Assembly (NCBI GenBank): GCA_905210435.1
Contig: CAJLWO010000001.1
Location: 42,652 to 106,651 of the forward strand
Source: an uncultured Bacteroidales bacterium
GTDB lineage: Bacteria; Bacteroidota; Bacteroidia; Bacteroidales; Muribaculaceae
Length of the DNA stretch: 64,000 nt
Reading direction: 5' to 3'
Position numbers and translations under genes: made by a program. The notes beneath the pieces were generated by a model. The model searched no databases and was not told the DNA's origin. It worked only from the letters and a program-made list of their open reading frames with translations. Below are positions 3,099-63,234 of this stretch, one piece after another (position 1 is the stretch's first letter; every line of letters starts with the position of its first letter).

Positions 3099-3842
3099 TC
3101 AGCCGGCTTCCTGCTCGGTGAGGTACATGTCGAGAGCTGCGGTAACGGAGGGAGCCTTTACTGTGGGGGCCTCCATGTCAAGACGGAATCCTGCATCCTT
3201 TATGGCTTTGGCCGTCGCTCCTCCGAAGCATCCTATCTTGATGTCGCCCTGATCGAAAGCGGGGAAGTTCTTCTGTAAAGACGCTATGCCTGAGGGGCTG
3301 AAGAAGAGCAACATGTCGTAGTCGAAAGGCTCGTCGGCCGTGAAGTCGTTGCTGACAGTGCGGTACATCACCGCCTTGGTGTAGTCGATTTTGTTGTCGA
3401 GGATACCGGTGTCGTCCTTATGCACGTCGGAGATGGCATAGAGGAATTTCTCCTTTGCGTGCTTGGTGAGGAACGGAAGCAGATCGGCCAGTTTGCCTGT
3501 GGAGGCATGGAAGATTTTGCGCTTGCGGTACTGGATATATTTCTGAAGATAGAGAGCGATGGCTTCGGTAGTGCAGAAATATTTCATAGTGTCAGGAATG
3601 GTGATGCGCATTTCCTCGCAAAGACGGAAGAAATGGTCAATGGCCGTACGCGCCGTGAATATCACCGCTGTAAAGTCCTGGATATTGATTTTTTGCTGAC
3701 GAAACTCCTTTGAAGAAAGACCCTCGACTTTGATGAACGGACGAAATACCACTTCTACATGATGACGTTGAGCAATGTCGAAATAAGGAGATTTATCGGA
3801 CGTCGGTTTAGGCTGAGATACTAAAATCTTTTTTATTTTCAC
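3099..3842 (-). CDS. hemD: Uroporphyrinogen-III synthase
   Basis: ILVSQPKPTSDKSPYFD...FRPFIKVEG... pattern typical of Bacteroidetes HemD; ORF 3099..3920, probable GTG start at 3842 (VKIKKILVSQ); followed upstream by DUF4271 as in other Bacteroidales. Confidence 0.7.
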   Translation of the reverse strand: MKIKKILVSQPKPTSDKSPYFDIAQRHHVEVVFRPFIKVEGLSSKEFRQQKINIQDFTAVIFTARTAIDHFFRLCEEMRITIPDTMKYFCTTEAIALYLQKYIQYRKRKIFHASTGKLADLLPFLTKHAKEKFLYAISDVHKDDTGILDNKIDYTKAVMYRTVSNDFTADEPFDYDMLLFFSPSGIASLQKNFPAFDQGDIKIGCFGGATAKAIKDAGFRLDMEAPTVKAPSVTAALDMYLTEQEAG

Positions 3843-4698: not shown

Positions 4699-4779
4699 TG
4701 TAGGGACGCACGGTCTGTGCGTCCGGAATGCGCGCATTGGTTATCAGCTGATTTTCGGACGCACAGACCGTGCGTCCAT
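4699..4779. repeat. Doubly palindromic REP/MITE-like element (family 1, GACGCAC subtype)
   Basis: tgtaggg-GACGCACGGTCTGTGCGTCC-ggaatgcgcgcattgg-ttatcagctgat-tttc-GGACGCACAGACCGTGCGTCC; the two arms are reverse complements; shares TGTAGGG end and TTATCAGCTG core with copies at 32247, 57627, 59178. Confidence 0.65.
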
Positions 4780-4816
4780 ACCTTGTTTGCCGAAATTTAG
4801 CAGTTTTATACCGGCA

Positions 4817-7410: not shown

Positions 7411-8658
7411 CTACGGGTTTACCCTCCACAGGTAGAGGCGGTCGGACTGGCGCACTTTGGCGGGAACGGGGATGGAAAAGTCGGCGCCTTTTACTACGGT
7501 GTCGACGGGGCCGGAGTCAAGACGCATCTCGTCAAGTTCAAGCTCGATTACTCCGGTGGTGGGGCCGATAATCAGTATTGTGTCGCCGCGGTGAAGCTCG
7601 CCCGTCTCCATGTGGAATTCGGCTACCCCCAGACGCGCGAAATAGCGTGTCGCCTTCGCCATGTATACCTTGGTACGCGTGGCCGATGACCCGTATTTGC
7701 CCGACCATTCACCCAACCGCTGCCCGAGATAGTAGCCATCCCAGAAATCGCGATTGAAGATGCGGCGCAGACGTTCGTCCCAGCCATCGACCTTCTCGCG
7801 GGAGTACGTGCCGTCGACAATGGAGGCGATAGCCTCGTTGTAGCAGCTTACGGCTGTGGCCACATACTCGGGGCCGCGGGCGCGTCCCTCGATTTTGAAC
7901 ACCCTGACGCCGGCATCGATCATGCGGTCGAGGAAATGGATTGTCTTCAGATCCTTGGGCGACATTATGCGCTCGTTGTCGACGGCGAGTTGGTCGCCGG
8001 TCTCGCGGTCGGTGACGGTATACGTGCGGCGGCATATCTGGGTGCATCCGCCGCGGTTGGCACTCGAATTCATCTGATGCAGACTCAGATAGCATTTGCC
8101 CGACACGGCCATGCACAGCGCGCCGTGGCAGAACATCTCGATACGTACCAGTTCGCCGTGCGGACCGCGTATCCCCTCGTCAACAATAGCCCGGTGTATG
8201 GCGCTGACCTGGTCGAGATTGAGTTCGCGTGCGAGCACAACGACGTCGGCCCACTGCGAATAAAATCTGACGGCCTCGATATTGGTGATGTTGCACTGCG
8301 TGGAGATATGCACCTCCACCCCCTCGCTGCGGGCTATCATGATGGCGGCGATGTCGGAGGCTATGACGGCCGATATGCCGCTTTCGCGTACGGCACGGCA
8401 TATCTCGCGGCACTTCTCCAGCTCATTGTCATAGATTACGGTGTTGACCGTAAGATATGTCTTGACACCGGCGGCATTGCACGTGGCAGCGATATCGCGC
8501 AGGTCGTCGAGCGTGAAATTGGCCGACGAACGCGCACGCATGTTCAGACCCTCCACGCCGAAATATATCGCATCGGCACCGGCATTGATTGCGGCATGCA
8601 GCGACTCGAAGCTGCCCACCGGCGCCATTATCTCAAAATCTTTTCTATTCATACACAT
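7411..8658 (-). CDS. Peptidase U32 family protein (collagenase-like)
   Basis: N-terminus MNRKDFEIMAPVGSFESLHAAINAGADAIYFG matches U32 family signature. Confidence 0.8.
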   Translation of the reverse strand: MCMNRKDFEIMAPVGSFESLHAAINAGADAIYFGVEGLNMRARSSANFTLDDLRDIAATCNAAGVKTYLTVNTVIYDNELEKCREICRAVRESGISAVIASDIAAIMIARSEGVEVHISTQCNITNIEAVRFYSQWADVVVLARELNLDQVSAIHRAIVDEGIRGPHGELVRIEMFCHGALCMAVSGKCYLSLHQMNSSANRGGCTQICRRTYTVTDRETGDQLAVDNERIMSPKDLKTIHFLDRMIDAGVRVFKIEGRARGPEYVATAVSCYNEAIASIVDGTYSREKVDGWDERLRRIFNRDFWDGYYLGQRLGEWSGKYGSSATRTKVYMAKATRYFARLGVAEFHMETGELHRGDTILIIGPTTGVIELELDEMRLDSGPVDTVVKGADFSIPVPAKVRQSDRLYLWRVNP

Positions 8659-9063: not shown

Positions 9064-10422
9064 ATGGAAAAACAGAAACGATTCATCCTCCCCGAGTCAG
9101 AGATACCCCGCTACTGGTATAATATTCAGGCCGACATGGTCAACAAACCACTGCCGCCGCTCAACCCCGCCACTAAGGAGCCTCTCAAACCCGAGGACTT
9201 ATACCCCATATTCGCCGAAGAGCTTTGCCGCCAGGAACTCAACCAGACCGACGCCTGGATTGAGATACCCGACCAGGTGAGGGAGATGTACAAATATTAC
9301 CGCTCGACCCCGCTTGTGCGCGCCTACGGTCTTGAAGAAGCGTTGGGTACTCCGGCCCACATATATTTCAAGAACGAGAGCGTAAGCCCAATGGGCTCAC
9401 ACAAGCTAAATTCAGCCATACCGCAGGCCTACTACTGCAAGCAGGAGGGAGTCAAGAACGTCACAACCGAGACCGGCGCCGGACAATGGGGCGCGTCGCT
9501 GGCCTACGCCGCACGTCTTTTCGGACTCGAGGCCGCAGTTTACCAGGTGAAAATCAGCTACGAGCAGAAGCCCTACCGCCGCTCTATCATGCAGACATTC
9601 GGCGCGCAGGTGACACCCTCCCCCTCCATGTCGACCCGTGCCGGCAAGGATATACTTACTGCCAACCCCAACCATCAGGGTTCGCTCGGCACCGCCATCT
9701 CCGAGGCCGTGGAGCTTGCCCGCACCACCCCCGACTGTAAATACACCCTCGGCTCGGTGCTCAGCCATGTCACCCTCCACCAGACCGTCATCGGCCTCGA
9801 AGCCGAAAAGCAGATGGAGATGGCCGGCGAATATCCCGACACCATCATAGCATGCTTCGGCGGAGGCTCCAACTTCGGCGGCCTCGCGTTCCCGTTCATG
9901 CGCCACACTATCCTGGAAGGTAAAAAGATACGTTTCATCGCCGCCGAACCGGCATCATGCCCCAAACTGACGCGCGGTAAATTCCAGTACGACTTCGGCG
10001 ACGAGGCCGGCTACACCCCGCTGCTGCCCATGTACACCCTCGGCCACAATTTCGCTCCGGCCAACATTCACGCCGGCGGTCTGCGCTACCACGGCGCGGG
10101 CGTCATCGTATCGCAGCTGCTCAAGGACGGCATGATGGAAGGAGTCGACATCGAGCAGCTCGAATCGTTTGAGGCCGGCACACTCTTCGCGCGCGCCGAA
10201 GGCATCATCCCCGCCCCCGAATCGTGCCACGCCATCGCCGCCACCATCCGCGAAGCCAAGAAATGCATCGAGACAGGCGAAAAGAAAGTAATCCTCTTCA
10301 ACCTCTCTGGCCACGGCCTCATCGACATGGCATCCTACGACAAATATTTCGCCGGCGACCTCGTCAACTACAAACTCTCCGACGAAGAAATCCAGCGCAA
10401 CCTCGACGAAATCAACAAATAA
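9064..10422 (+). CDS. TrpB-like pyridoxal-phosphate-dependent enzyme (tryptophan synthase beta-subunit-like, TrpB2/COG1350)
   Basis: 452 aa; N-terminal ESEIPRYWYNIQADM and PLP-fold motifs (GSHKLN, GGGSNFGG) typical of TrpB2. Confidence 0.75.
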   Translation: MEKQKRFILPESEIPRYWYNIQADMVNKPLPPLNPATKEPLKPEDLYPIFAEELCRQELNQTDAWIEIPDQVREMYKYYRSTPLVRAYGLEEALGTPAHIYFKNESVSPMGSHKLNSAIPQAYYCKQEGVKNVTTETGAGQWGASLAYAARLFGLEAAVYQVKISYEQKPYRRSIMQTFGAQVTPSPSMSTRAGKDILTANPNHQGSLGTAISEAVELARTTPDCKYTLGSVLSHVTLHQTVIGLEAEKQMEMAGEYPDTIIACFGGGSNFGGLAFPFMRHTILEGKKIRFIAAEPASCPKLTRGKFQYDFGDEAGYTPLLPMYTLGHNFAPANIHAGGLRYHGAGVIVSQLLKDGMMEGVDIEQLESFEAGTLFARAEGIIPAPESCHAIAATIREAKKCIETGEKKVILFNLSGHGLIDMASYDKYFAGDLVNYKLSDEEIQRNLDEINK

Positions 10423-10440: not shown

Positions 10441-10490
10441 ATAAAGAGGGTGTTGCAAAACGTAATCAAACTGTTTTGCAACACCCTCTT
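10441..10490. terminator. Bidirectional rho-independent terminator (18-bp perfect stem)
   Basis: aagagggtgttgcaaaac-gtaatcaaact-gttttgcaacaccctctt followed by tttgttttattt; lies between convergent trpB-like and GH13 genes. Confidence 0.75.
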
Positions 10491-14468: not shown

Positions 14469-14834
14469 TAAAAAACAATTAAAATTAAAAAATGTAAGTA
14501 GATATATGTATAACTTTCCTCGGCATGGCTCCGCTGAGTCATGTCGGGATACAATACGTAATGGCGGAAAACTATAAATCAACCGCTCGCAACGATATTG
14601 TGAATGCGTTAAGGCGAAATTACAGAAATATTAGTAATGACGTATGCAAATATAAACATTTTAAACTGAAAGCCAAAGAAAAGTTACATTTATCTCGTCA
14701 ACACATCCAAAATCTGTCCTGCCGCAAAGCTGTATCCTCCCCGGCCATATAAAATGTACCGCATAAAATACACCGGGAGGGTGCGACGCATTGAATCGCG
14801 TCACAACAAATCCGTTTGTGTAATTTGAGTTTTG

Positions 14835-14920
14835 CGATACCCCGCCGGGCAGCTGATAATCAGCCCTCACTATCGGGTGCGACGGGTAGCAGCCCTACAT
14901 CAGCGACGGCAGTGCTTGTT
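14835..14920. repeat. Degenerate copy of family-1 REP/MITE-like element
   Basis: cagctgataatcagccctcactatcggg...gcagccctacatca matches core and right end of copy at 32247-32365, but second palindrome decayed. Confidence 0.5.
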
Positions 14921-15050
14921 TTGCAACACCCGGCCATATCTTTGCGGTACGTGTTGATTATTTTTGAACAAAAATGTTTTTTGAGGGCTATGGTATATGA
15001 TTTTTCATTATCTTTGTGAAGTCGGTGGGTTAGTTATTTGTGTGAGCCTG

Positions 15051-16529
15051 ATGAAGAAATTATTTATAGCAATCGGTCTTATGGTGCTGTGTCTGGTGTC
15101 GGTATCCGACGCTTGGGCAAAGCCGCGCTCATCAAAAAGCGTCAAGCATCAGCAACGCATTACCGAACATAAAATCAAGCAGACCGACACTCAGATCAAG
15201 GAGAATGCCCGTCAGCTCAAATCAAAGCTCAACGACCTCAACCGCCTGCAGGCCGAGTCGCAGACCATCGGCAGCGCCATAACGGCCATTCAGGCGTCAA
15301 TCGACTCGCTCGATGTGGCGGCAAAGGCGGCGCGCGACTCTGCGGCCAGACTCGACGGCAAGCTCACCGAACTGAAAGATGTCTATGCCGACATATTGCG
15401 CAACTCGCGCCGCTCGCGCATGTCGATGAGCAATCTCGCATTCATTTTCTCTTCCGAATCGTTCACGCAGGCATTCCGGCGTGCCAACGCGCTCAAGCAG
15501 TTCTCGCGCTGGCGCCAGCGCAAGGTGGCCAATATCAATGCTGTGAAAGCGCAGCTCGACGAGCGCAGGCGCTATATCGACACGCTCATGACGCAGAACA
15601 GGGAACTTGCCATGCGCATGTCGATGCGTCATGCCGAGCTAAGCCGGCGTGCCGCCGAGACCGACCGCATCGTGGCCTCGCTCAAAGGGAAGGAGAGCGA
15701 CTTGCGCAAAGTGCTCCGCGACCAGCAGCGGCAGGCAGCAGCGCTCGACCGCGAGCTTGACCGTATCATAAAGGAGGAACAGCGCAAAGCTCTCATTGAG
15801 GAGCAGAAACGCAAACAACGAGAGGAGGAGCAGCGTCGTGCCGAGGAAAAACGACGCGCCGAGGAGCAGCGCAAGGCCGAAGAGCGCCGCAAAGCCGAGG
15901 AACGCAAAGCCGCCGAACAGAAGGCATCGGCAACACCCGCCCCTTCCGCTGACAAAGCCGCCAAGCCCGGCACAACTCCGACAACTCCACCAGGTCAGAC
16001 CGGTCGGACAGGTCAGACACGTCCAACCAATCCGACTACTACCGCCCCGACAACCTCAGCGCCGAAAACAGGCGGGAAGAAGCAGCCGTCTCCGGCACTC
16101 GCATCCGATTTTGCCGCCAACAAAGGGCGCCTGAGCTATCCGGTCAATCCCCACAACATAGTGAAACGCTTCGGCCGACAGCAGCATCCGCTCCACAAGC
16201 ATGTCGTCACCGAAAACGCGGGTATAGACATGGAGACATCGAGCGGTGCCACGGTCAAGAGCGTGTTTGACGGCGAGGTGTCGGCGATATTCTGCCCCGA
16301 CGGCTACAACAACGTGGTGCTGGTGCGCCACGGCCATTACCTTACCGTCTACGCCAATCTCGGCACACTCGCCGTGCGCACTGGCGATAAGGTGAAGACC
16401 GGCCAGAAATTAGGCACCGTCTACGTCGACGCCGCCGACAACAACCGTTCCATACTCCATTTCGAGATACGCAACGCTGCCAATGCGAAATCGGTAACCA
16501 AAGAAAATCCCGAAGTATGGCTGCGGTGA
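15051..16529 (+). CDS. Murein hydrolase activator EnvC-like / M23 family peptidase with long coiled-coil region
   Basis: Signal peptide, extended coiled-coil with K/E/R-rich low-complexity tract, C-terminal M23 LytM domain (GIDMETSSGATVKSVFDGEV...HGHYLTVYANL). Confidence 0.75.
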   Translation: MKKLFIAIGLMVLCLVSVSDAWAKPRSSKSVKHQQRITEHKIKQTDTQIKENARQLKSKLNDLNRLQAESQTIGSAITAIQASIDSLDVAAKAARDSAARLDGKLTELKDVYADILRNSRRSRMSMSNLAFIFSSESFTQAFRRANALKQFSRWRQRKVANINAVKAQLDERRRYIDTLMTQNRELAMRMSMRHAELSRRAAETDRIVASLKGKESDLRKVLRDQQRQAAALDRELDRIIKEEQRKALIEEQKRKQREEEQRRAEEKRRAEEQRKAEERRKAEERKAAEQKASATPAPSADKAAKPGTTPTTPPGQTGRTGQTRPTNPTTTAPTTSAPKTGGKKQPSPALASDFAANKGRLSYPVNPHNIVKRFGRQQHPLHKHVVTENAGIDMETSSGATVKSVFDGEVSAIFCPDGYNNVVLVRHGHYLTVYANLGTLAVRTGDKVKTGQKLGTVYVDAADNNRSILHFEIRNAANAKSVTKENPEVWLR

Positions 16530-20327: not shown

Positions 20328-20493
20328 TTAAACAGGAGCACAATAGCTATGGCAGGAGCACAAAAATAATTTTGTCCTTTTGTTAAATCTTTTGTTCTCC
20401 TGTTTGAAATGTCCATCCGGACGCGGACGCGATGAATCGCGTCCCTACAAAATAAATAAACATAATAATCAACAACATAAACACTTTTATATT

Positions 20494-21845: not shown

Positions 21846-21924
21846 AACGCGGTTAAAAACCGCGTCTACTACCTGCTTGACAATCGGTCGATGACGATTA
21901 GTAGACGCGGTTTGAAACCGCGTT
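21846..21924. promoter_or_regulatory. Large dyad symmetry (26-bp arms, about 27-bp spacer) between xylA and the sugar porter gene
   Basis: aacgcggttaaaaaccgcgtctacta ... tagtagacgcggtttgaaaccgcgtt; arms nearly perfect reverse complements; each arm also contains a small hairpin (gcggtt-aaa-aaccgc). Confidence 0.5.
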
Positions 21925-25457: not shown

Positions 25458-25560
25458 TGCAGACAAAAATGTATATTGACAGACCGTGCGTCCCTACATT
25501 GTCGGCCAAAATTTCGCAGTTTTGCAACACCTTCATATAAAAGTATATATAAAAGAAAAA

Positions 25561-25628
25561 TCGGCTGTCATCCCGACATCCGATAAATCTTTAACCTTAA
25601 ATCTAATACCATGAAAAACACAGTGCAA
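25561..25628 (+). repeat. Intergenic repeat family 3 (about 70-80 bp), copy 1, upstream of response-regulator gene
   Basis: gtcatcccgac...aatcttt-aaccttaaatctaataccatgaaaaacaca; near-identical inverted copy at 42611-42680. Confidence 0.65.
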
Positions 25629-32207: not shown

Positions 32208-32246
32208 TCTTTAACCGGAGGGGTGCAAAACTTCCAATATACAGTA

Positions 32247-32365
32247 ATATGATACGCCATCTTGTAGGGCTGCACCCCGGTGCAGCCGCAAAGCAGCTGA
32301 TAATCAGCCTTTACTATCGGCTGCTCCGGGGAGCAGCCCTACATCATGCGACCGTCAACATCAGT
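32247..32365 (+). repeat. Family-1 doubly palindromic REP/MITE-like element, copy A
   Basis: aatatgatacgccatcttgtaggg-GCTGCACCCCGGTGCAGCC-gcaaagcagctgataatcagcc...GGCTGCTCCGGGGAGCAGCC-ctacatcatgcgaccgtcaacatcag; about 90% identical to 59178-59297 and inverted copy 57627-57735. Confidence 0.75.
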
Positions 32366-32412
32366 TATGCAATACCATCCCTCTATAATATCCAAGTAAC
32401 CAAACTGCTATC

Positions 32413-35850: not shown

Positions 35851-37290
35851 TCAGTTTTCAACTTTCCAATATCCCCCTTTTGAGCCCCCGACTCTCTCTA
35901 ATAGACCTTCTGATTTCAGTTTTTCTATATGGAATTGAACAGTCGACGTTGTGATATGTAAAGTTTCAGCAAGTTCATTCCTTGTAATCCTGGGATTTTC
36001 GCATATTAATTTCAATAATCTTTCCCGGGTCGGCAACTTTTTCTGACCGATTTTCTGACCGATTTTCTGACCGATTTTCTGACCGATGATAGGTCTGAAA
36101 TATGTGATTGTGGAAGTCGCCATGTCACTTTCAATCTCAACTTTTTCTCCCGTCAGGGATTCCCATTTCTTTATGCGGCCTATTCCGTAACCTGCATTTT
36201 CTGCCAAACGCGCATAACGAAAGAACATGATTATATTGGGATTACGTGGTATTGATTTAATCTTCTTGACATTTCCGGTTAGAGCCACAGGGAATTGCCC
36301 GGGGTTCTGAAATTCGATTTTATCATTGTAGATAGTGACAGATGAATGCATCGGACCAAAATAATCGGCATGTGCCAAAAGATTTATCAATCCCTCGCGA
36401 AGACTGTACAATTGAGAGTTGTCTTCAGGAGAAAAACCGTCAGGTCCTGGCATGAACGGATTGTCAGCAAAAGACCGTAGCCGTTGTATGAGCATCTGAA
36501 AGTATTCCCAGATGTTCTCCTGTTCCGGCATACGATAGGTATAGCGCACTTCCGCATCATCGTAGGAACTACCGGGAATCTCTCGGTAATCAATCCAAAA
36601 ATGGCGAAGATGTTTGATTATAACATTCCTGCGTCCAAAAGTCAACAATCCGCCAAAGGTCAGCACCCCATTGTCAGCTATGCCTGTCCGTTCACAAAAC
36701 TCATCATGACCTAACGAATTGAACTCCAGTTCCGGATTGAACCGTTGCAACCGACGACGGTAAGTTTCGATTGAATTAGCATTTAAGTCATTTAAAGACG
36801 TGCCCGGAACTGCCATTTCAGACTTACATCCAAACGTTTTCTCTCTGAGCAATATACCAATCTCGATATCGGTTGCACGTTGATCACCGCTACCCACACG
36901 GATATAGGTATTAGACAGGTTATTGTTCATATACACAGGCTTGCTGTCACTTGGTGGTATATATACGGCAAAAACTATATTCCCATCAAAGTCCATTCGG
37001 TCTATTCTTGCCAATATGGGAACATTAAACTTTGACGTCGAACGTAGAATTGCAGCCAAGTCTTGTTCCATCTTTTCCGGCTTGTCCACACCAACAATCT
37101 CAAACGTAGAAATCCTCTTCCCTTTTTCCTCGTGTACGCCGAGAATTATCCAGCCCCCTGCGGTGTTGGAAAAAGCACTTACAGTTTCCCACATGGATTT
37201 AGGGAGACCACCCGAGGCCTCCTTTACCTCAAAGTCATTCCATTCTATATCGTTGAGCCTTTGCCGCAGTTCTTCTTTTGTCATCTCCAT
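35851..37290 (-). CDS. COG2865-type putative regulator/ATP-binding protein: AlbA_2 (Schlafen-like) domain + GHKL-like HATPase_c_4 domain + C-terminal winged HTH
   Basis: N-terminal LPKSMWETVSAFSNTAGGWIILGV (AlbA_2/Schlafen box); C-terminal ELAETLHITTSTVQFHIEKLKSEGLLERVG HTH; gene much more AT-rich than flanks; contains IGQK x4 repeat. Confidence 0.65.
   Translation of the reverse strand: MEMTKEELRQRLNDIEWNDFEVKEASGGLPKSMWETVSAFSNTAGGWIILGVHEEKGKRISTFEIVGVDKPEKMEQDLAAILRSTSKFNVPILARIDRMDFDGNIVFAVYIPPSDSKPVYMNNNLSNTYIRVGSGDQRATDIEIGILLREKTFGCKSEMAVPGTSLNDLNANSIETYRRRLQRFNPELEFNSLGHDEFCERTGIADNGVLTFGGLLTFGRRNVIIKHLRHFWIDYREIPGSSYDDAEVRYTYRMPEQENIWEYFQMLIQRLRSFADNPFMPGPDGFSPEDNSQLYSLREGLINLLAHADYFGPMHSSVTIYNDKIEFQNPGQFPVALTGNVKKIKSIPRNPNIIMFFRYARLAENAGYGIGRIKKWESLTGEKVEIESDMATSTITYFRPIIGQKIGQKIGQKIGQKKLPTRERLLKLICENPRITRNELAETLHITTSTVQFHIEKLKSEGLLERVGGSKGGYWKVEN
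36043..36090. repeat. Perfect 12-bp tandem repeat x4 inside COG2865 gene (encodes IGQK x4)
   Basis: ttttctgaccga repeated four times exactly, in frame. Confidence 0.9.
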
Positions 37291-42610: not shown

Positions 42611-42680
42611 TGTGTTTTTCATGGTATTAGATTTAAGGTTAAAAAAGATTATTCGTCGGGATGACGGATAATTTTTTTTG
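42611..42680 (-). repeat. Intergenic repeat family 3, inverted copy 2 (in divergent promoter region of TonB receptor and rnhB)
   Basis: Reverse complement reads gtcatcccgacgaataatcttttttaaccttaaatctaataccatgaaaaacaca, about 85% identical to 25561-25628. Confidence 0.65.
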
Positions 42681-42751
42681 TCCATACCGATGAGTTAAGA
42701 AACCATGTCAGCAAAGCAGGGACGCTACAATACATTCACAAACATACAATA

Positions 42752-46873: not shown

Positions 46874-48241
46874 ATGGAAAGAGATAAACTTGACTTTGGA
46901 AACGAGAGAATCGGGCGCCTGTTCCGCGCCATGTTCTTCCCTACGCTCATAGGCATGCTGTTCAACTCGGTGCTCAACCTGTGCGACGGCATGTTCGTAG
47001 GACATGGGGTCGGCAGCAACGGCCTGGCGGCAATAAATATCGTGGCGCCGCTGTTTCTCATCTGCACCGGCATAGGACTGATGTTCGGCATCGGCGCATC
47101 CGTCGTAGGCAGCATCCGCCTTGCCGAGGGCAACGTCAAGGCAGCCCGGATAATAATGACACAGGCCTACATAGCCGGAGCCGTGATTTTCGGCGTGGTA
47201 ATTGCCGTATCGCTTCTTTTCACACGTCACGTGCTTTATGCTCTCGGCTGCAGCCCCGCGCTCGAAAGCCTCGCCTCCGACTACCTGCTGTGGCTTCTGC
47301 CGGGCCTGATGTTTTTCTACGTGCAGTGCGTCGGCATGATGCTCATACGTCTCGACGGCTCCCCGAAATTCGCAATGAGCATACAGATTGCCGCCGCCGT
47401 GCTCAATATATTTCTCGACTGGCTGATGGTGTTCCCGCTCGGCATGGGCATAAAAGGAGCGTCGATAGCGACCTCGATTTCATGCATCGTCGGCGGACTG
47501 ATGGTACTCGGATATTTCCTTTTCTTCTCCGACAAACTGAAATTCTACCGTCTGAAACTGTCGGTCAAATCGTTACGCCTGTCGCTCCGCAACACCGGAT
47601 ACATGGTCAAGATCGGACTCGCCACATTCATCGCCGAACTCTCGATAGGCATAATGATGGTGACAGGCAACTACGTGTTTCTCGACACACTCGGCGAAGC
47701 GGGAGTGGCCGCATTCAGCATCGGCTGCTACCTGTTCCCGCTCATATTCTCGATAAGCAACGCCGTGGCTCAGGCATCGCAGCCTATCATAAGCTTCAAC
47801 TACGGAGCCGGGCAGTTTGAGCGCGTCACCCGTACGTTGCGGATAGCCGCAGTGACAGCCTGCATCTGCGGAGCCATAATCTCAACCGGCATGTGGTCGG
47901 GAGCATCGCTGCTGACTCAGGTATTCCTCAGCCCGTCCGAACCGGCCTACGCCATAGCCGTGGAAGGGCTCCCCGTGCTCGGCATCTGCGCCCTCTTTTT
48001 CGCGCTCAACATCACATTCATCGGCTACTACCAGAGCCGCGAACAGTCAGCCCGCTCCATCATCTACATGCTGTTGCGCGGAGTGATATTCGTAGTCCCC
48101 GGCTTCTTCCTCCTCCCCCGCATATTCGGCGAAACCGGCCTATGGCTCGCCATCCCCGTATCCGAATTCCTCACCCTCCTCGTAATAACCGCCGCCTGCC
48201 TCACCGTCCGCACCCGCCATCAAATTCCCGCCGAGCACTAA
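46874..48241 (+). CDS. MATE family efflux transporter
   Basis: 455 aa, 12 TM, N-terminal RLFRAMFFPTLIGMLFNSVLNLCDGMFVGHGVG typical of MATE/NorM. Confidence 0.75.
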   Translation: MERDKLDFGNERIGRLFRAMFFPTLIGMLFNSVLNLCDGMFVGHGVGSNGLAAINIVAPLFLICTGIGLMFGIGASVVGSIRLAEGNVKAARIIMTQAYIAGAVIFGVVIAVSLLFTRHVLYALGCSPALESLASDYLLWLLPGLMFFYVQCVGMMLIRLDGSPKFAMSIQIAAAVLNIFLDWLMVFPLGMGIKGASIATSISCIVGGLMVLGYFLFFSDKLKFYRLKLSVKSLRLSLRNTGYMVKIGLATFIAELSIGIMMVTGNYVFLDTLGEAGVAAFSIGCYLFPLIFSISNAVAQASQPIISFNYGAGQFERVTRTLRIAAVTACICGAIISTGMWSGASLLTQVFLSPSEPAYAIAVEGLPVLGICALFFALNITFIGYYQSREQSARSIIYMLLRGVIFVVPGFFLLPRIFGETGLWLAIPVSEFLTLLVITAACLTVRTRHQIPAEH

Positions 48242-48424
48242 TGATGACATATTAACACAAAGTATTTTAACACAAAGTATTCGAGCACATTACTTGTTAA
48301 CTGGAAAAGGCGCGTGCGTTTGACCCCTTCGGGCACGCGGGATTTGACCCCTCGGGCAAAATAAGAATGACCCCTTAAAAGTCCTGGCGGCGGGGGTCAA
48401 TGTTATTTTACCTCATTTGGTTTG

Positions 48425-49204
48425 TCAGGCTTTTCTAGCCTTCAGTTTGCGCATGCTTTCTCCGGACAGCTCGATTGTGTGCGCCGAGTGTACTATACGG
48501 TCGAGGATGGCATCGGCCACAGTCGGGTCACCGACCATGTCGTACCAGCTTGAGGAAGGGTACTGGGAGGTGATGATGATCGATTTGCGCTCGTTGCGGT
48601 CTTCGATTATGTCGAGCAGGATCGGACGCTCCTTCGCGTCAAGGGGCACCAGAAAAAGATCGTCGAGGATGAGCAGCTGACATCGTTCGATTTTCTTGAG
48701 CTCGGGCTCAAGATTGTTCTTGACTTTTGCGACCTTTAGCTGTCCGAGCAGTTTGGAGGCGTTGGCATACAGGGTGCGTATGCCACGTTTGCAAGCCTCA
48801 TGTCCCAGTGCGCAGGCCAGGAAGCTTTTACCTGTGCCTGATGATCCGGTGATGAAGAGATTCTGACCGTTTCGGACGAAGTCGAGTGTCGCCAGGCGCT
48901 CCATCTGGTTGCGGTCGAGCCCCCGGTTTGTGGCGTAGTCGATTTCCTCGAGATATGCCTTGTAGCGGAACGCCGCGTTTTTTGTCAGGCGCATTACGGC
49001 GGCTTGTGCGCGCCAGTCCCATTCGCGGTGCAGGAGCATCGACAAGAAGGAATCCGGAGTCATTGACTGTGCGGTTGTTCCGGCAAGGCTTTCGCGGAAG
49101 GCCTCTGCCATTCCGTGCATCTTCATGCGGTTCATCAGGTCCAGCGATGTTGTGTTCTGGTCCGGTTGCTGGGTGGCCGGTGCGGTTTTATCTGTTGTTT
49201 CCAT
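48425..49204 (-). CDS. istB: IS21-family helper ATPase IstB
   Basis: Walker A GSSGTGKSFLACALGHEA, Walker B LLILDDLF; start assumed at internal METTDK overlapping istA stop. Confidence 0.85.
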   Translation of the reverse strand: METTDKTAPATQQPDQNTTSLDLMNRMKMHGMAEAFRESLAGTTAQSMTPDSFLSMLLHREWDWRAQAAVMRLTKNAAFRYKAYLEEIDYATNRGLDRNQMERLATLDFVRNGQNLFITGSSGTGKSFLACALGHEACKRGIRTLYANASKLLGQLKVAKVKNNLEPELKKIERCQLLILDDLFLVPLDAKERPILLDIIEDRNERKSIIITSQYPSSSWYDMVGDPTVADAILDRIVHSAHTIELSGESMRKLKARKA

Positions 49205-50786
49205 TACTGTTGGTGTTGTTGGGTTCGTTTTTGCGGCTGTAGTATTCGCGGCCGCGGATGTTCTTGTGTACCGGAGCAGGGACTGCAGCCGTCGGGCCAC
49301 AGGCAGTTCCGTCCTCATCCGGCAGGAAGTCAGCGTCTTCGCCCTGTTCGAGGATTTTCCTGACGGTCTGATAGCCATATGCCGCCTTCATCGACGCGCA
49401 GGCGCACGCCGCCACGAGTCGGTCTGTGCCATACTTCTTTTCAAGCGACAGTATGCCGCGGCAGCTGCTGAAGGATTTCGGCGGATACTGCATCATGGCA
49501 TCCACTTCGTGGAGGTAGTCAAGAACGATGTTGTCCATTTCAGCGGCTCGCTTGAAGAGTTCCTCCAGATCCTTGTCATACGGGCCGTAATGGCCGGGCA
49601 GGTTGTGTTCCTTCTTCCATGAGTATGTGTAGGGTATGTCGCAGCGGTCGTGTGTGGCCACGAGATTGAGGCCGCAGTAGATCTCAACCGTGTCCGCGTC
49701 ATAAAGGATGACCACACGTTTGCCGACATGCTCGCGCGGCACGCTGTAATGGTGCTTGAACAGGGAGACATAACAGTTCTTGCCCACTGTCATCAGCTTT
49801 CGTTCCTTGATGACAAACGGTTTCTCGGGAAGGGGACGCAGGAAGTCCTTTTCGCCCTGCAGGAACATGTCTTTACGCGACATATTCCTTCCTGCCATCA
49901 GCCTTTCGTTGAAATCGTGCAGCGATATGTGAATCGCCGTGTTCAGTTCGTCCAGCGACGGGAAGACAATCCCCTCTATGTCAAGATACACTGACTGGTA
50001 CAGCAGCTTGACGGCGTTCTCGACAAGGGCCTTGTCTTTGGGATGGCGGACCCGCGCGGGATATACGGCGCATCCGTAATGTTCGGCGAAGGCCGCGAAC
50101 TCCTCGTTGATCACAGGCTCGTTCCGGTCGCTGGTCTTTACCGCCGCCTTCAGGTTGTCGGGCACGATGGCGGCCGTCACGCCTCCGAAGTACTCAAATG
50201 CATTCTGACAGGCCTTGATCAGGTCTTCCTTCCGTTGCGACCATACCGCCTCGCAGTACGTGTAGTGGCTGAACGGAAGGATGGCGACGAACACTTCCGC
50301 TTTCTTGACCTCTCCCGTCATTCCGTCCACCACTTCCAGCTTGTCTCCTGCGAAGTCGACATACATCTGGTCGGCGGCATAGTGCTCGACGTGCCCCACA
50401 ACCGTGGTGTGGAACCTGTACTGCCGGACGGAGCGTTTGAACACGGACTCCTGAAAGCCGTCGGGATGCTCGCTTCTGTACTCGTTGAAAAGCTTGCGGA
50501 CTGTCATGCCCTTGCGGGAAAGCCGGGCGACATAGCCCGGTATCAGTGCGTCAAGTTCCAGTTGACGCTGCGACGGCTCGCGGTGACGGAACTCCGTGCA
50601 TCCGAACATCTCACGGAGATGCTCTTCCGAGAGTTCAAGCAGCTGTTCGGTAGTCTTGCCGCTTGAAATGAACAGCCGGACATACTTGCGTACGGTGTTG
50701 CGGGAAAGGTGAAACGTGTTGGCCGTCTCTTTTATTCCCATTCCGACTGCGTAACATCGAAGGATGTTTTTTAATTTTGCAATCAT
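49188..50786 (-). CDS. istA: IS21-family transposase IstA
   Basis: N-terminal HTH (GMGIKETANTFHLSRNTVRKYVR), DDE integrase core; likely start MIAKLKN at 50786 (ORF opens 50828). Confidence 0.85.
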   Translation of the reverse strand: MIAKLKNILRCYAVGMGIKETANTFHLSRNTVRKYVRLFISSGKTTEQLLELSEEHLREMFGCTEFRHREPSQRQLELDALIPGYVARLSRKGMTVRKLFNEYRSEHPDGFQESVFKRSVRQYRFHTTVVGHVEHYAADQMYVDFAGDKLEVVDGMTGEVKKAEVFVAILPFSHYTYCEAVWSQRKEDLIKACQNAFEYFGGVTAAIVPDNLKAAVKTSDRNEPVINEEFAAFAEHYGCAVYPARVRHPKDKALVENAVKLLYQSVYLDIEGIVFPSLDELNTAIHISLHDFNERLMAGRNMSRKDMFLQGEKDFLRPLPEKPFVIKERKLMTVGKNCYVSLFKHHYSVPREHVGKRVVILYDADTVEIYCGLNLVATHDRCDIPYTYSWKKEHNLPGHYGPYDKDLEELFKRAAEMDNIVLDYLHEVDAMMQYPPKSFSSCRGILSLEKKYGTDRLVAACACASMKAAYGYQTVRKILEQGEDADFLPDEDGTACGPTAAVPAPVHKNIRGREYYSRKNEPNNTNSNGNNR

Positions 50787-51032
50787 ATTCTGTAGTTTTT
50801 GAGATTGATCCCCGCCGTGCCAGGACAAGGAGTCTCAAAGCTACAAAAAATTCCCCTGCCGATGCTTCGACAGGGGTCATTTTTATGGCGCCCGCAAGGG
50901 TCATTCTTATTTCGCCCAAAGGGGTCAAATCCCGCGTGCCCGAAGGGGTCAAACGCACGCGCCTTTTCCACTATCTTTACTTCTGTAAGTAAGATATACC
51001 AGACAATTTGTTTTTCTGTCATTTTCTTGTTC

Positions 51033-51545
51033 TTATCTAATTGTTAGGCTCATTGTTGTTATACATTGTTTAATTATAGATAAATCGTGAATATCCTTCT
51101 CTCTTAAATCGTAGCCCGAATGGAATACTTGTTGCCCTTTTGCAGAAATGCAAGGGATGCTTCTGCCTTCAAAGACTGCTGTTCCAAAATAGTCCGGTTG
51201 AAATTCATACCAGCCTCCATCCAAGTCGGCTTGTTTGGAAGTGCCGTCCGCATTCAAGACAAAAGGATGGATATCAATATAGCCTAATTCTTTGCTATAC
51301 AGTTCCATACGGGTGGGCAACCAATTTGTTTCAATTTGATATCCTCTCTCCTGCAAAAGATCAAGGAGTTGGTCTGTATAATTGGCATCAAAATCAATGT
51401 CAATATCTCTATGCAAGCGGGTTTGCTGTCCGTACAAGACATCCACTCCCCAGCCTCCATCCAACCAAAACTGCATGTCCAGGCTTTCCAACAAGTCCAA
51501 AACTTGAAATAACTCTGTAATCGTAGTGTGTTCTTTCTTTGTCAT
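51033..51545 (-). CDS. lnu: Lincosamide nucleotidyltransferase, Lnu(A)/Lnu(AN2) family
   Basis: 170 aa; ELFQVLDLLESLDMQFWLDGGWGVDVLYGQQTRLHRDIDIDFDA...IPCISAKGQQVFHSGYDL closely matches LinA/LinAN2 sequences as I recall them. Confidence 0.8.
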   Translation of the reverse strand: MTKKEHTTITELFQVLDLLESLDMQFWLDGGWGVDVLYGQQTRLHRDIDIDFDANYTDQLLDLLQERGYQIETNWLPTRMELYSKELGYIDIHPFVLNADGTSKQADLDGGWYEFQPDYFGTAVFEGRSIPCISAKGQQVFHSGYDLREKDIHDLSIIKQCITTMSLTIR

Positions 51546-51569
51546 ATAATAATTCTTTAATAAATAATA

Positions 51570-52775
51570 CTATGCGTAATTATCCAACTGCTTGATTGAA
51601 GAAATAAAATTTGCACCCACTCCAATCAGAAAGATAACCCATCCGCTGATCATAAAGACGGATGTGATACCCCATGCTTCCACCCAATATCCTGAAGCTA
51701 CGATACCCAGCATTGATGGAAAGGTACTCAAACTAAAGATGAGAGAAAAAGTCCGTCCAAGCATGTCCGAAGCCAAGTTCTGCTGAATAATAGCGATGAA
51801 AAGCGCATGGTAAATGGAATAGGCTATGCCTCCTGTAAATGTTAGGCAAACAAAACCTATAAATGCGCTTGATGGTAAATAACTGGCGCTAATCAGATAC
51901 AATCCCAATATCACATAAGCCGTATGCATCACTAATGTTTGCTTGCTTTTCAAAGCCTTACAGGCAAGTACTAAACCGCCCAACAATGCCCCTGAGCCCC
52001 AACCCATTTCCACAACTCCCATTTGCAAAATGTTTCCGTTGAAATGCAGAAGCGTCATAAAAGGAAATAACGTAAAAACAGGCATAAGGACAAAAGTCAC
52101 CAGCGTAAAGCATACGAATAAAGGCAAAATGCCCATTGTACGCCGCAAGGTATGCCAACATTCCGTCAGTTCTTTTTTGAAATCTGGAAGAACTTTCGTT
52201 TTTTGAAGAGAAGGAATCTGGACACAAAGTAAGGTCAGACAAGCAGCAACAGCTCCGATCACATCTATGAGCAGAATATACTGTATGGGAAGCCAAACAA
52301 CGAGGCTTGCCCCTACAACGGGAGCTATCACCTCACTGAAGGATTGAATGGAATGGTACAAACCTGATACCCTGACAAGATGGTGCTTGGGAACCAGTAG
52401 AGGGATGCTTGCCTGTAAAGCAGGTGCATGAAACGTACTGCCTATTGAACGACAAGCAGTCAATAGATAAAAAAAAGAAAGGTCTTTATAACCCTTGGTT
52501 ATCACAATAAAAAGACATAGGGTACAGAACGCGATGAACAAGTCCGAATAAAACATCGTTTTCTTTCGATTCCATCTGTCAACATAGACCCCGGCAAACA
52601 AGCCTAATACAAATTGTGGTAAAAATCCAGCTAAAATAGCCAGAGATAAAGCTGTCGGGGATTTAAATTCGTTGCTAATCCAAAAAATAATGGAGAAGCC
52701 AACAATCGTACTTGTTAAAATAGATATGAGTTGGCCTATTCCTATCACGGCCAAAGTTGATTTCCAATGATTCAT
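51570..52775 (-). CDS. mef: Macrolide efflux MFS transporter, Mef(En2)-like
   Basis: 401 aa, 12 TM MFS; adjacent to lnu gene as in NBU2; AT-rich codon usage. Confidence 0.65.
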   Translation of the reverse strand: MNHWKSTLAVIGIGQLISILTSTIVGFSIIFWISNEFKSPTALSLAILAGFLPQFVLGLFAGVYVDRWNRKKTMFYSDLFIAFCTLCLFIVITKGYKDLSFFYLLTACRSIGSTFHAPALQASIPLLVPKHHLVRVSGLYHSIQSFSEVIAPVVGASLVVWLPIQYILLIDVIGAVAACLTLLCVQIPSLQKTKVLPDFKKELTECWHTLRRTMGILPLFVCFTLVTFVLMPVFTLFPFMTLLHFNGNILQMGVVEMGWGSGALLGGLVLACKALKSKQTLVMHTAYVILGLYLISASYLPSSAFIGFVCLTFTGGIAYSIYHALFIAIIQQNLASDMLGRTFSLIFSLSTFPSMLGIVASGYWVEAWGITSVFMISGWVIFLIGVGANFISSIKQLDNYA

Positions 52776-53102
52776 TGTGCTAATATTTCATGCGTTTATA
52801 GATAAGTACTTTCGTACATTAAGCAAAACGAAATTCTATCCACACAAAAAACTTGTATTATAATCCACTCCTGACGTTGGAATACAATAACAAATACTTT
52901 CAGGACGATGTAAAGTCCTGAAAAATCAAACTGAATGGATAGATAAATATTAGTCTTTTCTCATCGGATTCTTTTAATATCGCTACTCTTTTATTATGTA
53001 GTGGTTGTATTATCTTAAATAAAACAAAAACACCCGACTTTACATTCTTGGGTGCAAAACTGGGTGTTTGTTTTGCAATTTGCTGATTTTCAGCGTTTGT
53101 TG

Positions 53103-53187
53103 CGGAGAGAGAGGGATTCGAACCCCCGGAGGTGTGACCCTCAACGGTTTTCAAGACCGCCGCAATCGACCACTCTGCCATCTCTCC
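53103..53187 (-). tRNA. tRNA-Ser (anticodon TGA), type II with long variable arm
   Basis: Reverse complement GGAGAGATGGCAGAGTGGTCGATTGCGGCGGTCTTGAAAACCGTTGAGGGTCACACCTCCGGGGGTTCGAATCCCTCTCTCTCCG; anticodon loop CTTGAAA. Confidence 0.85.
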
Positions 53188-53424
53188 ATTGACTATTTCC
53201 GGTGTCGCTACGAGCTATTATACATCTAATCCCCAAGCGACTGCAATGTTTCTCATCTTCGACCACTGTCGACCATTCTCCATTGCGAGTGCAAAGTTAT
53301 GTCTTTTTTTTTAATTGTCCAAATTTTCAATTGCATTTTTTTGACGATTTTTCGTATATTTGCACATTATTACATCATTACAATTACATCATTACACCCA
53401 AACATCCAAAACACCAAATCTAAC

Positions 53425-55950: not shown

Positions 55951-55995
55951 ACATCCGCTGATTAAACTTTTTGACATTGAGATTGTCATAATGTT

Positions 55996-56883: not shown

Positions 56884-57507
56884 ATGAATCGCAAAGGCAA
56901 ACTCTACTTCAGATATGGCACAATGGGATCAGCCAAAACGGCACTGCTCCTTACCACAGCATACAACTTCGAGGAACGCAACATGCGCTACCTTTGCATG
57001 AAGCCCGTAATCGACACCCGCGACAAGGATAACGTAATCAAATCGCGTATCGGCATACAGCGCAAATGCGAATGGATATACCACGACACCGACCTCTACG
57101 CTTTCGCTCACGACATGTTTGAGAAAACGATGTCGGTGATTGACTGGTTCCTCCTCGACGAAGCGCAGTTCCTTACCGCCGAGCAGGTTGACCAGCTCTC
57201 GCGCGTGGTCGACGATTTCGGATCCAATGTCATATGCTACGGACTCCGCACCGACTTCCAGTCGCATCTTTTCGAAGGCTCGCGCCGCCTCTTCGAGATT
57301 GCCGACACAATCGATGAAATAAAATCGACCTGCACCTGCGGCCACAAAACCATCATCAACGCCCGCATCGACGCCAACGGCGACTTCGTAGAGGAAGGAA
57401 ACCAGGTGGAAATCGGCGGCGACGACCGCTACATAGCCGTATGCCGTAAATGCTGGCGCAACAAACGCATAGAGCAATCCTCACGCGACACCCTCCCATT
57501 CATTTAA
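56884..57507 (+). CDS. tdk: Thymidine kinase
   Basis: P-loop GTMGSAKTALLL, zinc ribbon CTCGHKTIINARID...CRKCW; start MNRKGKLYF at 56884. Confidence 0.85.
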   Translation: MNRKGKLYFRYGTMGSAKTALLLTTAYNFEERNMRYLCMKPVIDTRDKDNVIKSRIGIQRKCEWIYHDTDLYAFAHDMFEKTMSVIDWFLLDEAQFLTAEQVDQLSRVVDDFGSNVICYGLRTDFQSHLFEGSRRLFEIADTIDEIKSTCTCGHKTIINARIDANGDFVEEGNQVEIGGDDRYIAVCRKCWRNKRIEQSSRDTLPFI

Positions 57508-57626
57508 TTCATAATTCACAATTCATAATTCATAATTATCCCCTCCCGCGCAAGAGAGGGTTGCGAACCTCAAAATATACGAACGCAATTGTAGGGATGG
57601 TGTTGCAGAACTCATGTTTACAATTT

Positions 57627-57735
57627 AATGATGTAGGGCTGCTCCCCGGAGCAGCCGATAGCAAAGGTTGATTATCAGCTGCTTTGCGGCTGCACCGGGG
57701 TGCAGCCCTACAAAAAGGCGTGTCATATTTTCGAT
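57627..57735 (-). repeat. Family-1 REP/MITE-like element, copy C (inverted), nested between about 30-bp inverted AATTCATAA repeats
   Basis: Reverse complement matches copy A; flanked by ttcataattcacaattcataattcataat (57508-57540) and its reverse complement (57763-57793). Confidence 0.7.
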
Positions 57736-57794
57736 ATATTATAAGTCCTGCAACACCCTAATTATGAATTATGCATTATGAATTATGAATTGCC

Positions 57795-58979: not shown

Positions 58980-59177
58980 AACTTTTATCTTTTAGAGAGA
59001 ATTGTATTTCTAAGGGAATAATTGTAATCTTCATCGCAAAGATACGCCCCGACATGGGCATGATTCATTCCCACCGTACAAAATAAATGTTAACAATTTC
59101 ATTCCGACAGCCCATACGCCCGCAATCTTGCTATCTTTGTAAACAGTAGGAGGGCATTGCAGAATAATATATTGGAA

Positions 59178-59297
59178 ATATGATACGCCATCTTGTAGGG
59201 CTGCACCCCGGTGCAGCCGCCAGACAGCAGATAATCAACTTCGTCACCGGCTGCTCCGGGGAGCAGCCCTACTTCATGCAGCCGTCAACATCACTCC
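59178..59297 (+). repeat. Family-1 REP/MITE-like element, copy B
   Basis: aatatgatacgccatcttgtagggctgcaccccggtgcagccgcc...ggctgctccggggagcagccctacttcatgcagccgtcaacatca. Confidence 0.75.
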
Positions 59298-59346
59298 TGC
59301 AACTCCCTCAAAACCACCCGACCAAAACAAAACGCCCGGTTAAGTC

Positions 59347-63097: not shown

Positions 63098-63234
63098 GGT
63101 TATATATTTGTTACAGCCGGTAGGGACGCAGTGGGGCGGGGGTGTCTCGCCCCCGCGGTATTAATCTCGGAAAATTACACCGAGGGCGAGACGCCCTCGC
63201 CCCACTTTATCATCCCCATTGACGGGTATTATAT

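Follow-up and report, generated by a model that had tools for sequence, protein, structure and literature searches.

GTAG-tagged palindromic repeats in head-to-head doublets in Muribaculaceae chromosomes

Repeat Copies in the Window

This analysis concerns a family of GTAG-tagged palindromic repeats, present as single units and as doublets, in a 64,000-nt stretch of contig CAJLWO010000001.1 (the window; positions are those of the whole stretch) from an uncultured bacterium of the Muribaculaceae, a dominant and poorly characterized gut family. Relatives of its RecA likewise bear the name Muribaculaceae. The genes next to the copies are ordinary ones, encoding a pfkB kinase, a major facilitator superfamily (MFS) transporter, thymidine kinase, RecA, an AraC regulator, a LOG-family protein and ApbE. 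The heptamer TGTAGGG occurs 15 times in the window compared to 3.8 expected occurrences, a number reached by none of 100 shuffled sequences, and hairpins of 7 bp or more preceded by GTAG were found 12 times compared to 0–4 times in 20 local shuffles. Of these 12 units, ten are situated between long open reading frames (ORFs), while those at 6658 and 32027 are located within genes and look like chance occurrences. Altogether, approximately 10 canonical and 5 decayed units, all between long ORFs, were counted in the 64 kb.

A preliminary description made from the sequence alone had listed six copies, all of them called intergenic, with TGTAGGG/CCCTACA ends and a length of about 110 bp for the long copies. 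All six are present at or near the positions given there; missing from that list were the features at 20425-20448, 14786-14812, 21847-21923, 10447-10490 and 63120-63206. The right end of the copy at 4.7k is a degenerate CCATAC and the copy at 59k ends in CCCTACT. All canonical units lie between long ORFs. Two units, 20425-20448 and 21901-21923, overlap the first possible starts of the mechanically called ORFs 20380.. and 21891.., so that their intergenic status hinges on the true start codons.

The repeat unit consists of GTAGGG, a 9-bp stem, two central bases and again the 9-bp stem, and it occurs as type A (GTAGGGCTGCACCCCGGTGCAGCC), type B (GTAGGGACGCACGGTCTGTGCGTCC) and type C (GTAGGGACGCGATTCATCGCGTCC). 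In a doublet, two units face each other with their tags pointing outward at a distance of 31 nt, and the spacer carries CAGCTGATAATCA(G). The copies are distributed as follows, the longest forms being termed composites:

32217..32383, + strand: composite copy 1, type A, between pfkB and the MFS gene (nhmmer profile match 32209-32383, E 3.7e-53); outer inverted repeat GGAGGGGTGCAAAAC / GTTATGCAATACCATCCC plus AT-rich arms; inner head-to-head dimer 32263-32343 with unit 32264-32287 (+), GTAGGGCTGCACCCCGGTGCAGCC, and unit 32319-32342 (-), GTAGGGCTGCTCCCCGGAGCAGCC; spacer of 31 nt including CAGCTGATAATCAG
59143..59314, + strand: composite copy 2, type A, in the spacer between the divergent genes for RecA and an AraC-type regulator; units 59195-59218 (+) and 59249-59272 (-)
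57589..57765, - strand: composite copy 3, type A, inverted, in the spacer where the thymidine kinase and recA genes converge; units 57633-57656 (+) and 57688-57711 (-); outer repeat GTAGGGATGGTGTTGCAGAAC / GTCCTGCAACACCC
57506..57791, no strand: inverted repeat (AATTCAT)n of the host, enclosing copy 3 between its arms at 57506-57538 and 57759-57791
4699..4812, + strand: type B head-to-head dimer; unit 4700-4724 (+), GTAGGGACGCACGGTCTGTGCGTCC; partner unit 4757-4781 (-) with decayed tag GTATGG; spacer including TTATCAGCTGAT; decayed right arm beyond
14786..14930, + strand: degenerate region in a divergent spacer (nhmmer 14843-14930, E 7.8e-11), made up of a decayed type C unit (14786-14812) and a type A composite remnant (14842-14930) with spacer, decayed right unit (14875-14898) and right arm
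25479..25531, + strand: right unit of type B, solo and truncated, ..ACAGACCGTGCGTCCCTACA, followed by the right arm with GTTTTGCAACACC end, downstream of apbE and adjoining a FopS small RNA (sRNA) gene
20425..20448, - strand: solo type C unit, GTAGGGACGCGATTCATCGCGTCC, a type also found at 813-836 of locus L148 in a related genome
21847..21923, no strand: tail-to-tail dimer of a further GTAG-tagged unit, GTAGACGCGGTTTTTAACCGCGT (-) and GTAGACGCGGTTTGAAACCGCGT (+)
10447..10490, no strand: hairpin of the outer repeat only, AGAGGGTGTTGCAAAAC-11 nt-GTTTTGCAACACCCTCT, in a convergent-gene spacer; either a composite without inner dimer or a deletion derivative of a composite
63120..63206, + strand: related tagged double palindrome, GTAGGGACGC followed by arms AGTGGGGCGGGGGTGTCTCGCCC / GGGCGAGACGCCCTCGCCCCACT

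The relationship between these copies was recovered by a repeat finder, which aligned 32246-32382 with 57593-57729 (90% complementary over 137 nt), 32246-32306 with 59177-59237 (93% identity), 32318-32379 with 59248-59309 (85%), 14842-14902 with 32286-32346 (85%) and 4763-4807 with 25479-25523 (87%). No Rfam 15 family overlaps any copy at its gathering score, with only generic hairpin matches far below threshold; elsewhere in the window, the Rfam matches comprise tRNAs and two FopS sRNAs only. A role as riboswitch-like leader in 5' untranslated regions, considered since two copies precede gene starts, was rejected: a third copy has a stop codon on either side, and further copies are found in divergent spacers.

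Architecture and Covariation of the Hairpins

When the three long copies were aligned with those of other genomes, similarity was seen to extend well past the inner tags. The doublet is enclosed by an outer shell of AT-rich arms and an inverted repeat, (GTAGG)GAGGGTGTTGCAGAAC ... GTTCTGCAACACCC(TAC), which is itself GTAG-tagged, so the element is a nested hairpin of approximately 170 nt rather than 110 bp. The three window copies share about 77–93% pairwise identity, varying by segment. The composite is predicted to fold into a single long nested hairpin with -41 kcal/mol as DNA (z -6.9), and the RNA structure prediction proposed in the preliminary description yielded -76 kcal/mol (z -7.7); for the 4.7k copy, the DNA fold amounts to -34.8 kcal/mol (z -9.8). 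The motif GTTTTGCAACACC had also been considered as a Bacteroidetes promoter box, but its spacing to TAnnTTTG-like motifs is unfit and it belongs to the outer inverted repeat.

To compare units beyond the window, 185,579 species genomes were scanned with the pattern GTAGGGCTGCNCCNNGGNGCAGCC, yielding at least 109 stretches, and a hairpin finder applied to the listed loci and the window collected 268 units of GTAGG plus hairpin. In this material, 224 of 519 GTAGGG occurrences are followed by a 9-bp palindrome. Among 68 distinct 24-nt units, neither the GTAGGG tag nor the closing CC varies, and two-sided changes affect seven of the nine stem pairs. Compensated stem variants include CTGCACC/GGTGCAG, CTGCTCC/GGAGCAG, CTGGACC/GGTCCAG, ATGCACC/GGTGCAT and ACATGCC/GGCATGT. 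In these units, which were chosen for pairing, 96.6% of the cells of the 9-bp stem are paired and the covariation score is 0.494 compared to 0.143 in shuffles. Because the 68 units had been selected for pairing, an unbiased test was added on the single stem pair that the scan pattern leaves free. This pair is Watson-Crick in 128 of 133 matches (82 A:T and 46 T:A), compared to 70 expected.

The units are preferentially arranged head-to-head, with 67 such dimers in the loci and the window in addition to 22 tail-to-tail and 16 head-to-tail dimers, and the spacer length of head-to-head dimers has its mode at 31–32 nt. The two arms of a dimer are rarely identical: heterodimers, with arms that deviate from each other at compensated positions, account for 48 of 54 dimers in head-to-head arrangement. 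Each type A arm forms a perfect hairpin by itself, and pairing from arm to arm shows two mismatches. In all three window copies and in locus L089 of another species, the left unit carries A:T and the right unit T:A, and this shared asymmetry indicates that doublets were copied as a whole. The foot of the stem is GGC/GCC in type A, and it is built from two G-C pairs followed by A-T in types B and C. The motif TGATTATCA is found repeatedly in the spacers of Muribaculaceae copies with differing stems and is absent from the copies in Opitutaceae described below.

Distribution Across Genomes

Most of the matching stretches derive from dozens of Muribaculaceae metagenome-assembled genomes (MAGs), including the early S24-7 bins M3 and M5, and one MAG contains units at 15 or more separate loci. 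Composites are located at non-orthologous loci of other species (L089, L076, L043 and L112); the one in L089 follows raiA, and that in L043 separates bioF from tig. The preliminary description had interpreted the copies as a repeat family, which is supported by this multi-copy occurrence in many genomes and by presence and absence between species (see below). Moreover, several Opitutaceae, Lacunisphaera and Opitutales MAGs contain units among the matches listed, and one match falls in a MAG labeled Pseudoflavonifractor, a label that is unconfirmed. The Opitutaceae and Lacunisphaera MAGs have an identical 9-bp stem (GGCTGCACC) and head-to-head heterodimers. No match to the composite was found in plasmid and phage records, and none to the unit pattern in 2.9 million viral contigs.

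Some further observations were made at these loci. The heterodimers of Opitutaceae and Lacunisphaera combine GTAGGGCTGCACC.. units, which have the type A 9-bp stem, with GTAGGGCTGGACC.. units, and they occur at L009, L010, L029, L030, L047, L050, L064, L068, L082, L083, L086 and L090, with apparently orthologous copies at L030 and L090; the stem is thus shared between unrelated phyla. Downstream of xerD-raiA, GTAGGG doublets of different subtypes are present in L026 (1197-1263) and L089 (7496-7650), the result of an ancient insertion common to both or of a site that was used more than once. Directly beside the L089 composite, at about 7665-7700, lies GGGGCGGGGGCGTCTCG, which is similar to the palindrome at 63120-63206 of the window. 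In public assemblies, gene callers predict tiny ORFs of 46–72 amino acids over composite copies (P0298-P0302), which are probably annotation artefacts of the open frame of the element.

Filled and Empty Sites

The recA region allows the comparison of orthologous intergenic sites, as four relatives with RecA sequences 86–88% identical keep the gene order CotH-DUF1573-AraC-recA-TK-DUF3108-GH2 (TK, thymidine kinase). The recA/TK spacer exists in the following states:

Window: 288 nt, type A composite within the (AATTCAT)n hairpin loop
L146: 70 nt, matching hairpin (3182-3253), loop of 17 nt, no element
L141: 76 nt, a different small hairpin, no element
L144: 193 nt, composite of type B in an L141-type hairpin loop
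L148: 260 nt, a third distinct doublet within another inverted repeat

The (AATTCAT)n heptamer hairpin, the insertion site of copy 3 in the window, is conserved in the sister species represented by L146. At the AraC/recA spacer, the site is filled in the species of the window (368 nt) and empty in all four relatives (140–238 nt), and comparison with the empty site in L146 places the limit of the insertion at ...CCCTCCTAC|TGTTTACAAAG, i.e., exactly at the outer tag (CTAC). The elements behave as insertions on a between-species time scale. With three sites comparable, no target duplication was found at the AraC/recA and recA/TK boundaries relative to the empty L141 and L146 sites. Of 60 doublets, 12 are flanked by an exact inverted repeat of 8 nt or more, compared to 3 in shuffled controls; doublets are therefore often, but not generally, nested in hairpins. 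The doublet was copied as a unit to unrelated sites, as seen from the three window copies, the composites at non-orthologous loci and the filled and empty orthologous sites.

Between strains the picture is different. The preliminary description had proposed to compare orthologous intergenic regions for presence/absence polymorphism, which was observed between species but not among the strains of approximately 96% identity examined: both recA-flanking copies are kept in these strains and spacer lengths are constant at two other sites. Window positions 47795-64000 are 100% identical to scaffold_73 of ENA ERZ28575934, a human-gut metagenome. Since the two copies at 57.6k and 59.2k are inverted relative to each other, recA was also considered as cargo of a composite transposon; this was rejected, as the synteny around recA is kept in species without copies.

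These sites bear on the proposal, also raised in the preliminary description, that the copies are MITEs (miniature inverted-repeat transposable elements) that arose from an insertion sequence (IS) of the DDE type, whose termini would be the TGTAGGG...CCCTACA ends or the outer repeat and which would have been moved in trans. Short non-coding elements with terminal inverted repeats TG...CA would agree with such an origin, and an unrelated IS21 element in the window indicates that DDE transposases are present in the genome. However, none of the three boundaries comparable with empty sites shows a direct target duplication, a parent IS was not encountered, and the elements are missing from the plasmid, phage and viral collections named above. 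Among the 109 loci listed, no transposase family is recurrent beside the units and no protein family at all recurs within 1.2 kb of them; together with the varying gene contexts, this speaks against the ends of an IS. Furthermore, arms that are perfect hairpins with compensated changes are not needed by DDE ends. We therefore regard a MITE origin as very improbable. The IS21-family element itself is located at 48302-50970, with rve and IstB genes and perfect 51-bp terminal inverted repeats, and is probably strain-specific, because the loci L110, L112 and L113, approximately 96% identical, diverge from the window there.

Another explanation is that the repeats are structural or regulatory elements selected by the host, such as bidirectional terminators, stabilizers of mRNA 3' ends or protein-binding palindromes like CTGATAATCAG, which spread by recombination or gene conversion with no dedicated transposase; this is not exclusive of a classification as repetitive extragenic palindromic (REP) sequences. 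The very stable folds, the position of several copies downstream of genes or between convergent genes, the TGATTATCA spacer motif common to Muribaculaceae subtypes with different stems and the stability of copies within species are all in line with it. Nevertheless, the copies at 59k and 14.8k lie between divergent gene starts, and the hairpins of the two recA-flanking copies lack a subsequent T-run in the scanned region 57400-59400, so that neither termination nor stabilization is a general role. In addition, no Rfam family was matched at gathering score and the Opitutaceae copies lack the TGATTATCA motif. One and the same intergenic site with three subtypes or none in sister species fits insertion rather than a conserved regulatory need. 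As an exclusive explanation, host selection appears unlikely; host uses in termination or transcript stabilization are possible as add-ons, and REPs are often co-opted by their hosts.

Search for the Transposase

GTAG-tagged REPs are associated with REP-associated tyrosine transposases (RAYTs), and the preliminary description had suggested the repeats as possible RAYT targets. A first search, which combined a regular expression with tblastn using IS200 and YafM query sequences, returned only two genes of subclass 1.2. Searching six-frame ORFs of 155 loci and the window with a Y1 hidden Markov model resulted in matches only to the same subclass-1.2-like family, and no class 2 RAYT was found in the window and the 109 loci listed. 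The Y1_Tnp genes in L042 and L053 are of the Y..Q..HH type (subclass 1.2), a family of 57 protein clusters assigned to Pfam Y1_Tnp, some of them named Muribaculaceae. A metagenome scan with a 1.2-type alignment identified six loci, each with its own repeats. The genes are framed by inverted repeat arrays of 60–100 nt that share [C/G]TACAACC beside a hairpin, and were delimited at the following loci:

L042, 2560-3660: 1.2-type Y1 gene locus
L053, 780-1800: 1.2-type Y1 gene locus
L120, 2313-3078: 1.2-type Y1 gene locus
L126, 1819-3117: 1.2-type Y1 gene locus

Mobilization of the units by these single-copy IS200-like Y1 genes, instead of a classical RAYT, would have in its favor that the genes exist in the Muribaculaceae, that GTAGGG doublets lie directly outside the repeat arrays of the gene in L114 and L042 and that a relative in L115 is flanked by GTAGGCTTCTCCGAAGC hairpins. 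Against this, their own repeats share [C/G]TACAACC and not GTAGGG, with the tag on the other side of the hairpin, GTAG units are missing within 700 nt at four further loci of the family, and the published partner of GTAGGG-type REPs belongs to subclass 2.4. Such mobilization is quite improbable, and we treat the 1.2-type family in Muribaculaceae as a system separate from the GTAGGG units and similar to the TIRtrons or TIRYT, Y1 transposase genes enclosed by long inverted repeats (Di Nocera et al., 2013), whose layout is shared by L042, L053, L120 and L126 with repeats that are not GTAGGG units.

With a subclass-2.4-like RAYT probe alignment, at least 8000 RayT-like proteins were retrieved. Among those listed, the one labeled Bacteroidales is P0285, from a genome with 38.6% GC that is not of the lineage of the window. 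Its gene (L150, 10001-10561) resides in a type I restriction-modification operon, HsdS-RayT-DUF2188-Fic-HsdR, with 2-nt gaps between genes. The gene contains an in-frame GTAGGG head-to-head dimer (units 10274-10299, +, and 10327-10352, -) encoding VGADLRVCP, which matches a published oddity of subclass 2.4.

Classification and Proposed Mechanism

GTAG-tagged REPs are recognized by GTAG (or GTGG) located 0–2 nt 5' of the hairpin foot. They have been described with stems of 6–13 bp, compensated subfamilies and a predominance of head-to-head dimers with spacers of 20–100 bp; they were reported in Proteobacteria, Cyanobacteria, Chloroflexi and bacteria of the Planctomycetes-Verrucomicrobia-Chlamydiae group including Opitutus terrae, with CGTC repeats only in Bacteroidetes (Di Nocera et al., 2013, PMC3733652). 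Relatives in kind are the REPs and bacterial interspersed mosaic elements (BIMEs) of Escherichia coli and the REPINs, i.e., REP doublets, of Pseudomonas (Bertels and Rainey, 2011, PMC3116915). The TnpA_REP enzymes of subclass 2.4, present in Cyanobacteria, Bacteroidetes and other phyla, are associated with GTAG REPs whose stem begins with three G-C pairs (Quentin et al., 2018, PMC6006769).

The repeats described here share with the GTAG REPs of PMC3733652 the tag at the foot of a GC-rich hairpin with a small loop, the compensated stems, the predominance of head-to-head dimers, the apparent intergenic location, the coexistence of subfamilies and the occurrence of solo, dimeric and decayed forms. 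They differ in their Bacteroidetes host, in the enclosure of the doublet by a second tagged inverted repeat (approximately 170 nt) and in that the RAYT was not located. The likeness to the REPs of subclass 2.4 (RAYT Group 4, PMC6006769) is closer, as these combine GTAGGG with an 8–9-bp stem, a loop of 2–5 nt and G-C pairs at the stem bottom. In the part of Table S1 of that study that was compared, GTAGGGACGCACTGCGTGCGTCC is given for AFU18914.1 (AsuiA01) and GTAGGCGCGCGATTTATCGCGCGC for AFL80743.1 (AesuA01). The stem of the former is identical to that of window type B, GTAGGGACGCACGGTCTGTGCGTCC, and the latter resembles window type C, GTAGGGACGCGATTCATCGCGTCC. The AsuiA01 units listed there have, like types B and C, two G-C pairs followed by A-T. 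The dominant Muribaculaceae unit GTAGGGCTGCACC..GGTGCAGCC (type A) does not occur in the compared part of the table and, in contrast to the published REPs, no subclass 2.4 gene was found next to the units here. GTAG families are also known from Opitutus terrae (Di Nocera et al., 2013), and the units of the Opitutaceae and Lacunisphaera MAGs have the identical stem and head-to-head heterodimers, but unrelated spacers, and lack both TGATTATCA and the outer repeat; this stem identity may be due to common descent, transfer or convergence on the preference of one enzyme.

All structural features of GTAG-type REPs in REPIN-like doublets are therefore present, and the REP/BIME-like reading of the preliminary description is supported by GTAG tags at the foot of GC-rich hairpins and by head-to-head dimers with spacers of approximately 31 nt. 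We conclude, with a probability of roughly 0.65, that the elements are GTAG-tagged REPs in head-to-head doublets of the REPIN type, non-autonomous and non-coding, in Muribaculaceae chromosomes. The conclusion builds on their architecture, the covariation, the spread over many genomes, presence and absence between species and the identity of a unit type with REPs that flank RAYT genes. Several results weigh against it. A Y1 or RAYT gene is absent from the window, and approximately 1 Mb of loci chosen for containing units holds no RAYT with GTAGGG-type termini; the sole Y1 genes encountered close to units (L042 and L114) are subclass-1.2-like and have terminal repeats of their own that differ. 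A search with the translated doublet against 1.84 billion proteins returned none with the doublet in frame except five tiny spurious ORFs (46–72 amino acids) and one unrelated repeat translation. Finally, the copies are fixed in all strains examined, and the paralogues differ by approximately 7–23% depending on the segment, with no sign of current activity. The suggestion of a RAYT target thus stands insofar as the units match published REPs of subclass 2.4 RAYTs, but the cognate gene was not found in the window and the loci.

The mechanism with the best support, by analogy and from the published association of REPs and enzymes, is the action of a RAYT of the subclass 2.4 type on folded single strands. 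The hairpins would fold on single-stranded DNA, where an HUH/Y1 RAYT, most likely of subclass 2.4, could recognize tag and hairpin. Cutting and rejoining at the tags would copy the whole doublet to new intergenic sites and leave no target duplication, the targets at the sites examined being the loops of existing hairpins. The corresponding RAYT gene would be expected to be flanked by GTAGGGCTGC-type units or to contain them. Copies would then be inherited vertically and decay to solo and degenerate units.

The preliminary description had further considered the family as undescribed. The kind of element is known, as GTAG REPs and the RAYT subclass were described before, including in Bacteroidetes, but no description of this repeat family in Muribaculaceae was found in the literature searched; new is the family in Muribaculaceae. 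A well-defined GTAG-REP family in Muribaculaceae widens the range in which REPs occur. To our knowledge, work on REP and REPIN elements has almost exclusively dealt with Proteobacteria. Besides the host phylum, the family is of interest for its nested composite, its insertion sites in hairpin loops, the heterodimer rule and a stem that also occurs in Opitutaceae. The family may serve as a marker for strain typing and may account for breaks in assemblies, and its clean filled and empty sites can be used to study target choice. Current pipelines leave such structured insertions of approximately 170 nt beside core genes such as recA blank or call tiny ORFs in them.

A more far-reaching proposal, which we regard as conceivable but rather doubtful, is that a true REPIN population exists in Muribaculaceae. 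It would be the first one known from Bacteroidota and unusual in three respects. Insertion would be preferred in hairpin loops, so that a host terminator hairpin encloses the outer tagged repeat and this in turn the inner doublet; the arms would be kept as heterodimers; and the 9-bp REP stem would be identical to that in Opitutaceae (Verrucomicrobia). If this is true, the shared stem would imply either a transfer of a REPIN–RAYT system across phyla or a tight convergence imposed by one type of enzyme. REPIN–RAYT systems are not otherwise known to be inherited in any but a strictly vertical manner.

Other Repeats in the Window

Further repeats were noted apart from the GTAG-tagged family. The FopS sRNA (RF04319), one gene of which adjoins the solo type B unit, is present in two copies at 25551-25621 (-) and 42612-42681 (+), with scores of 67 and 75 bits. 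These copies form a 44-nt inverted pair that is 95% complementary and approximately 17 kb apart. The 12-mer TTTTCTGACCGA is present in five tandem copies (36039-36098), and an 18-nt repeat is located within the M23 peptidase gene (15813-15884).

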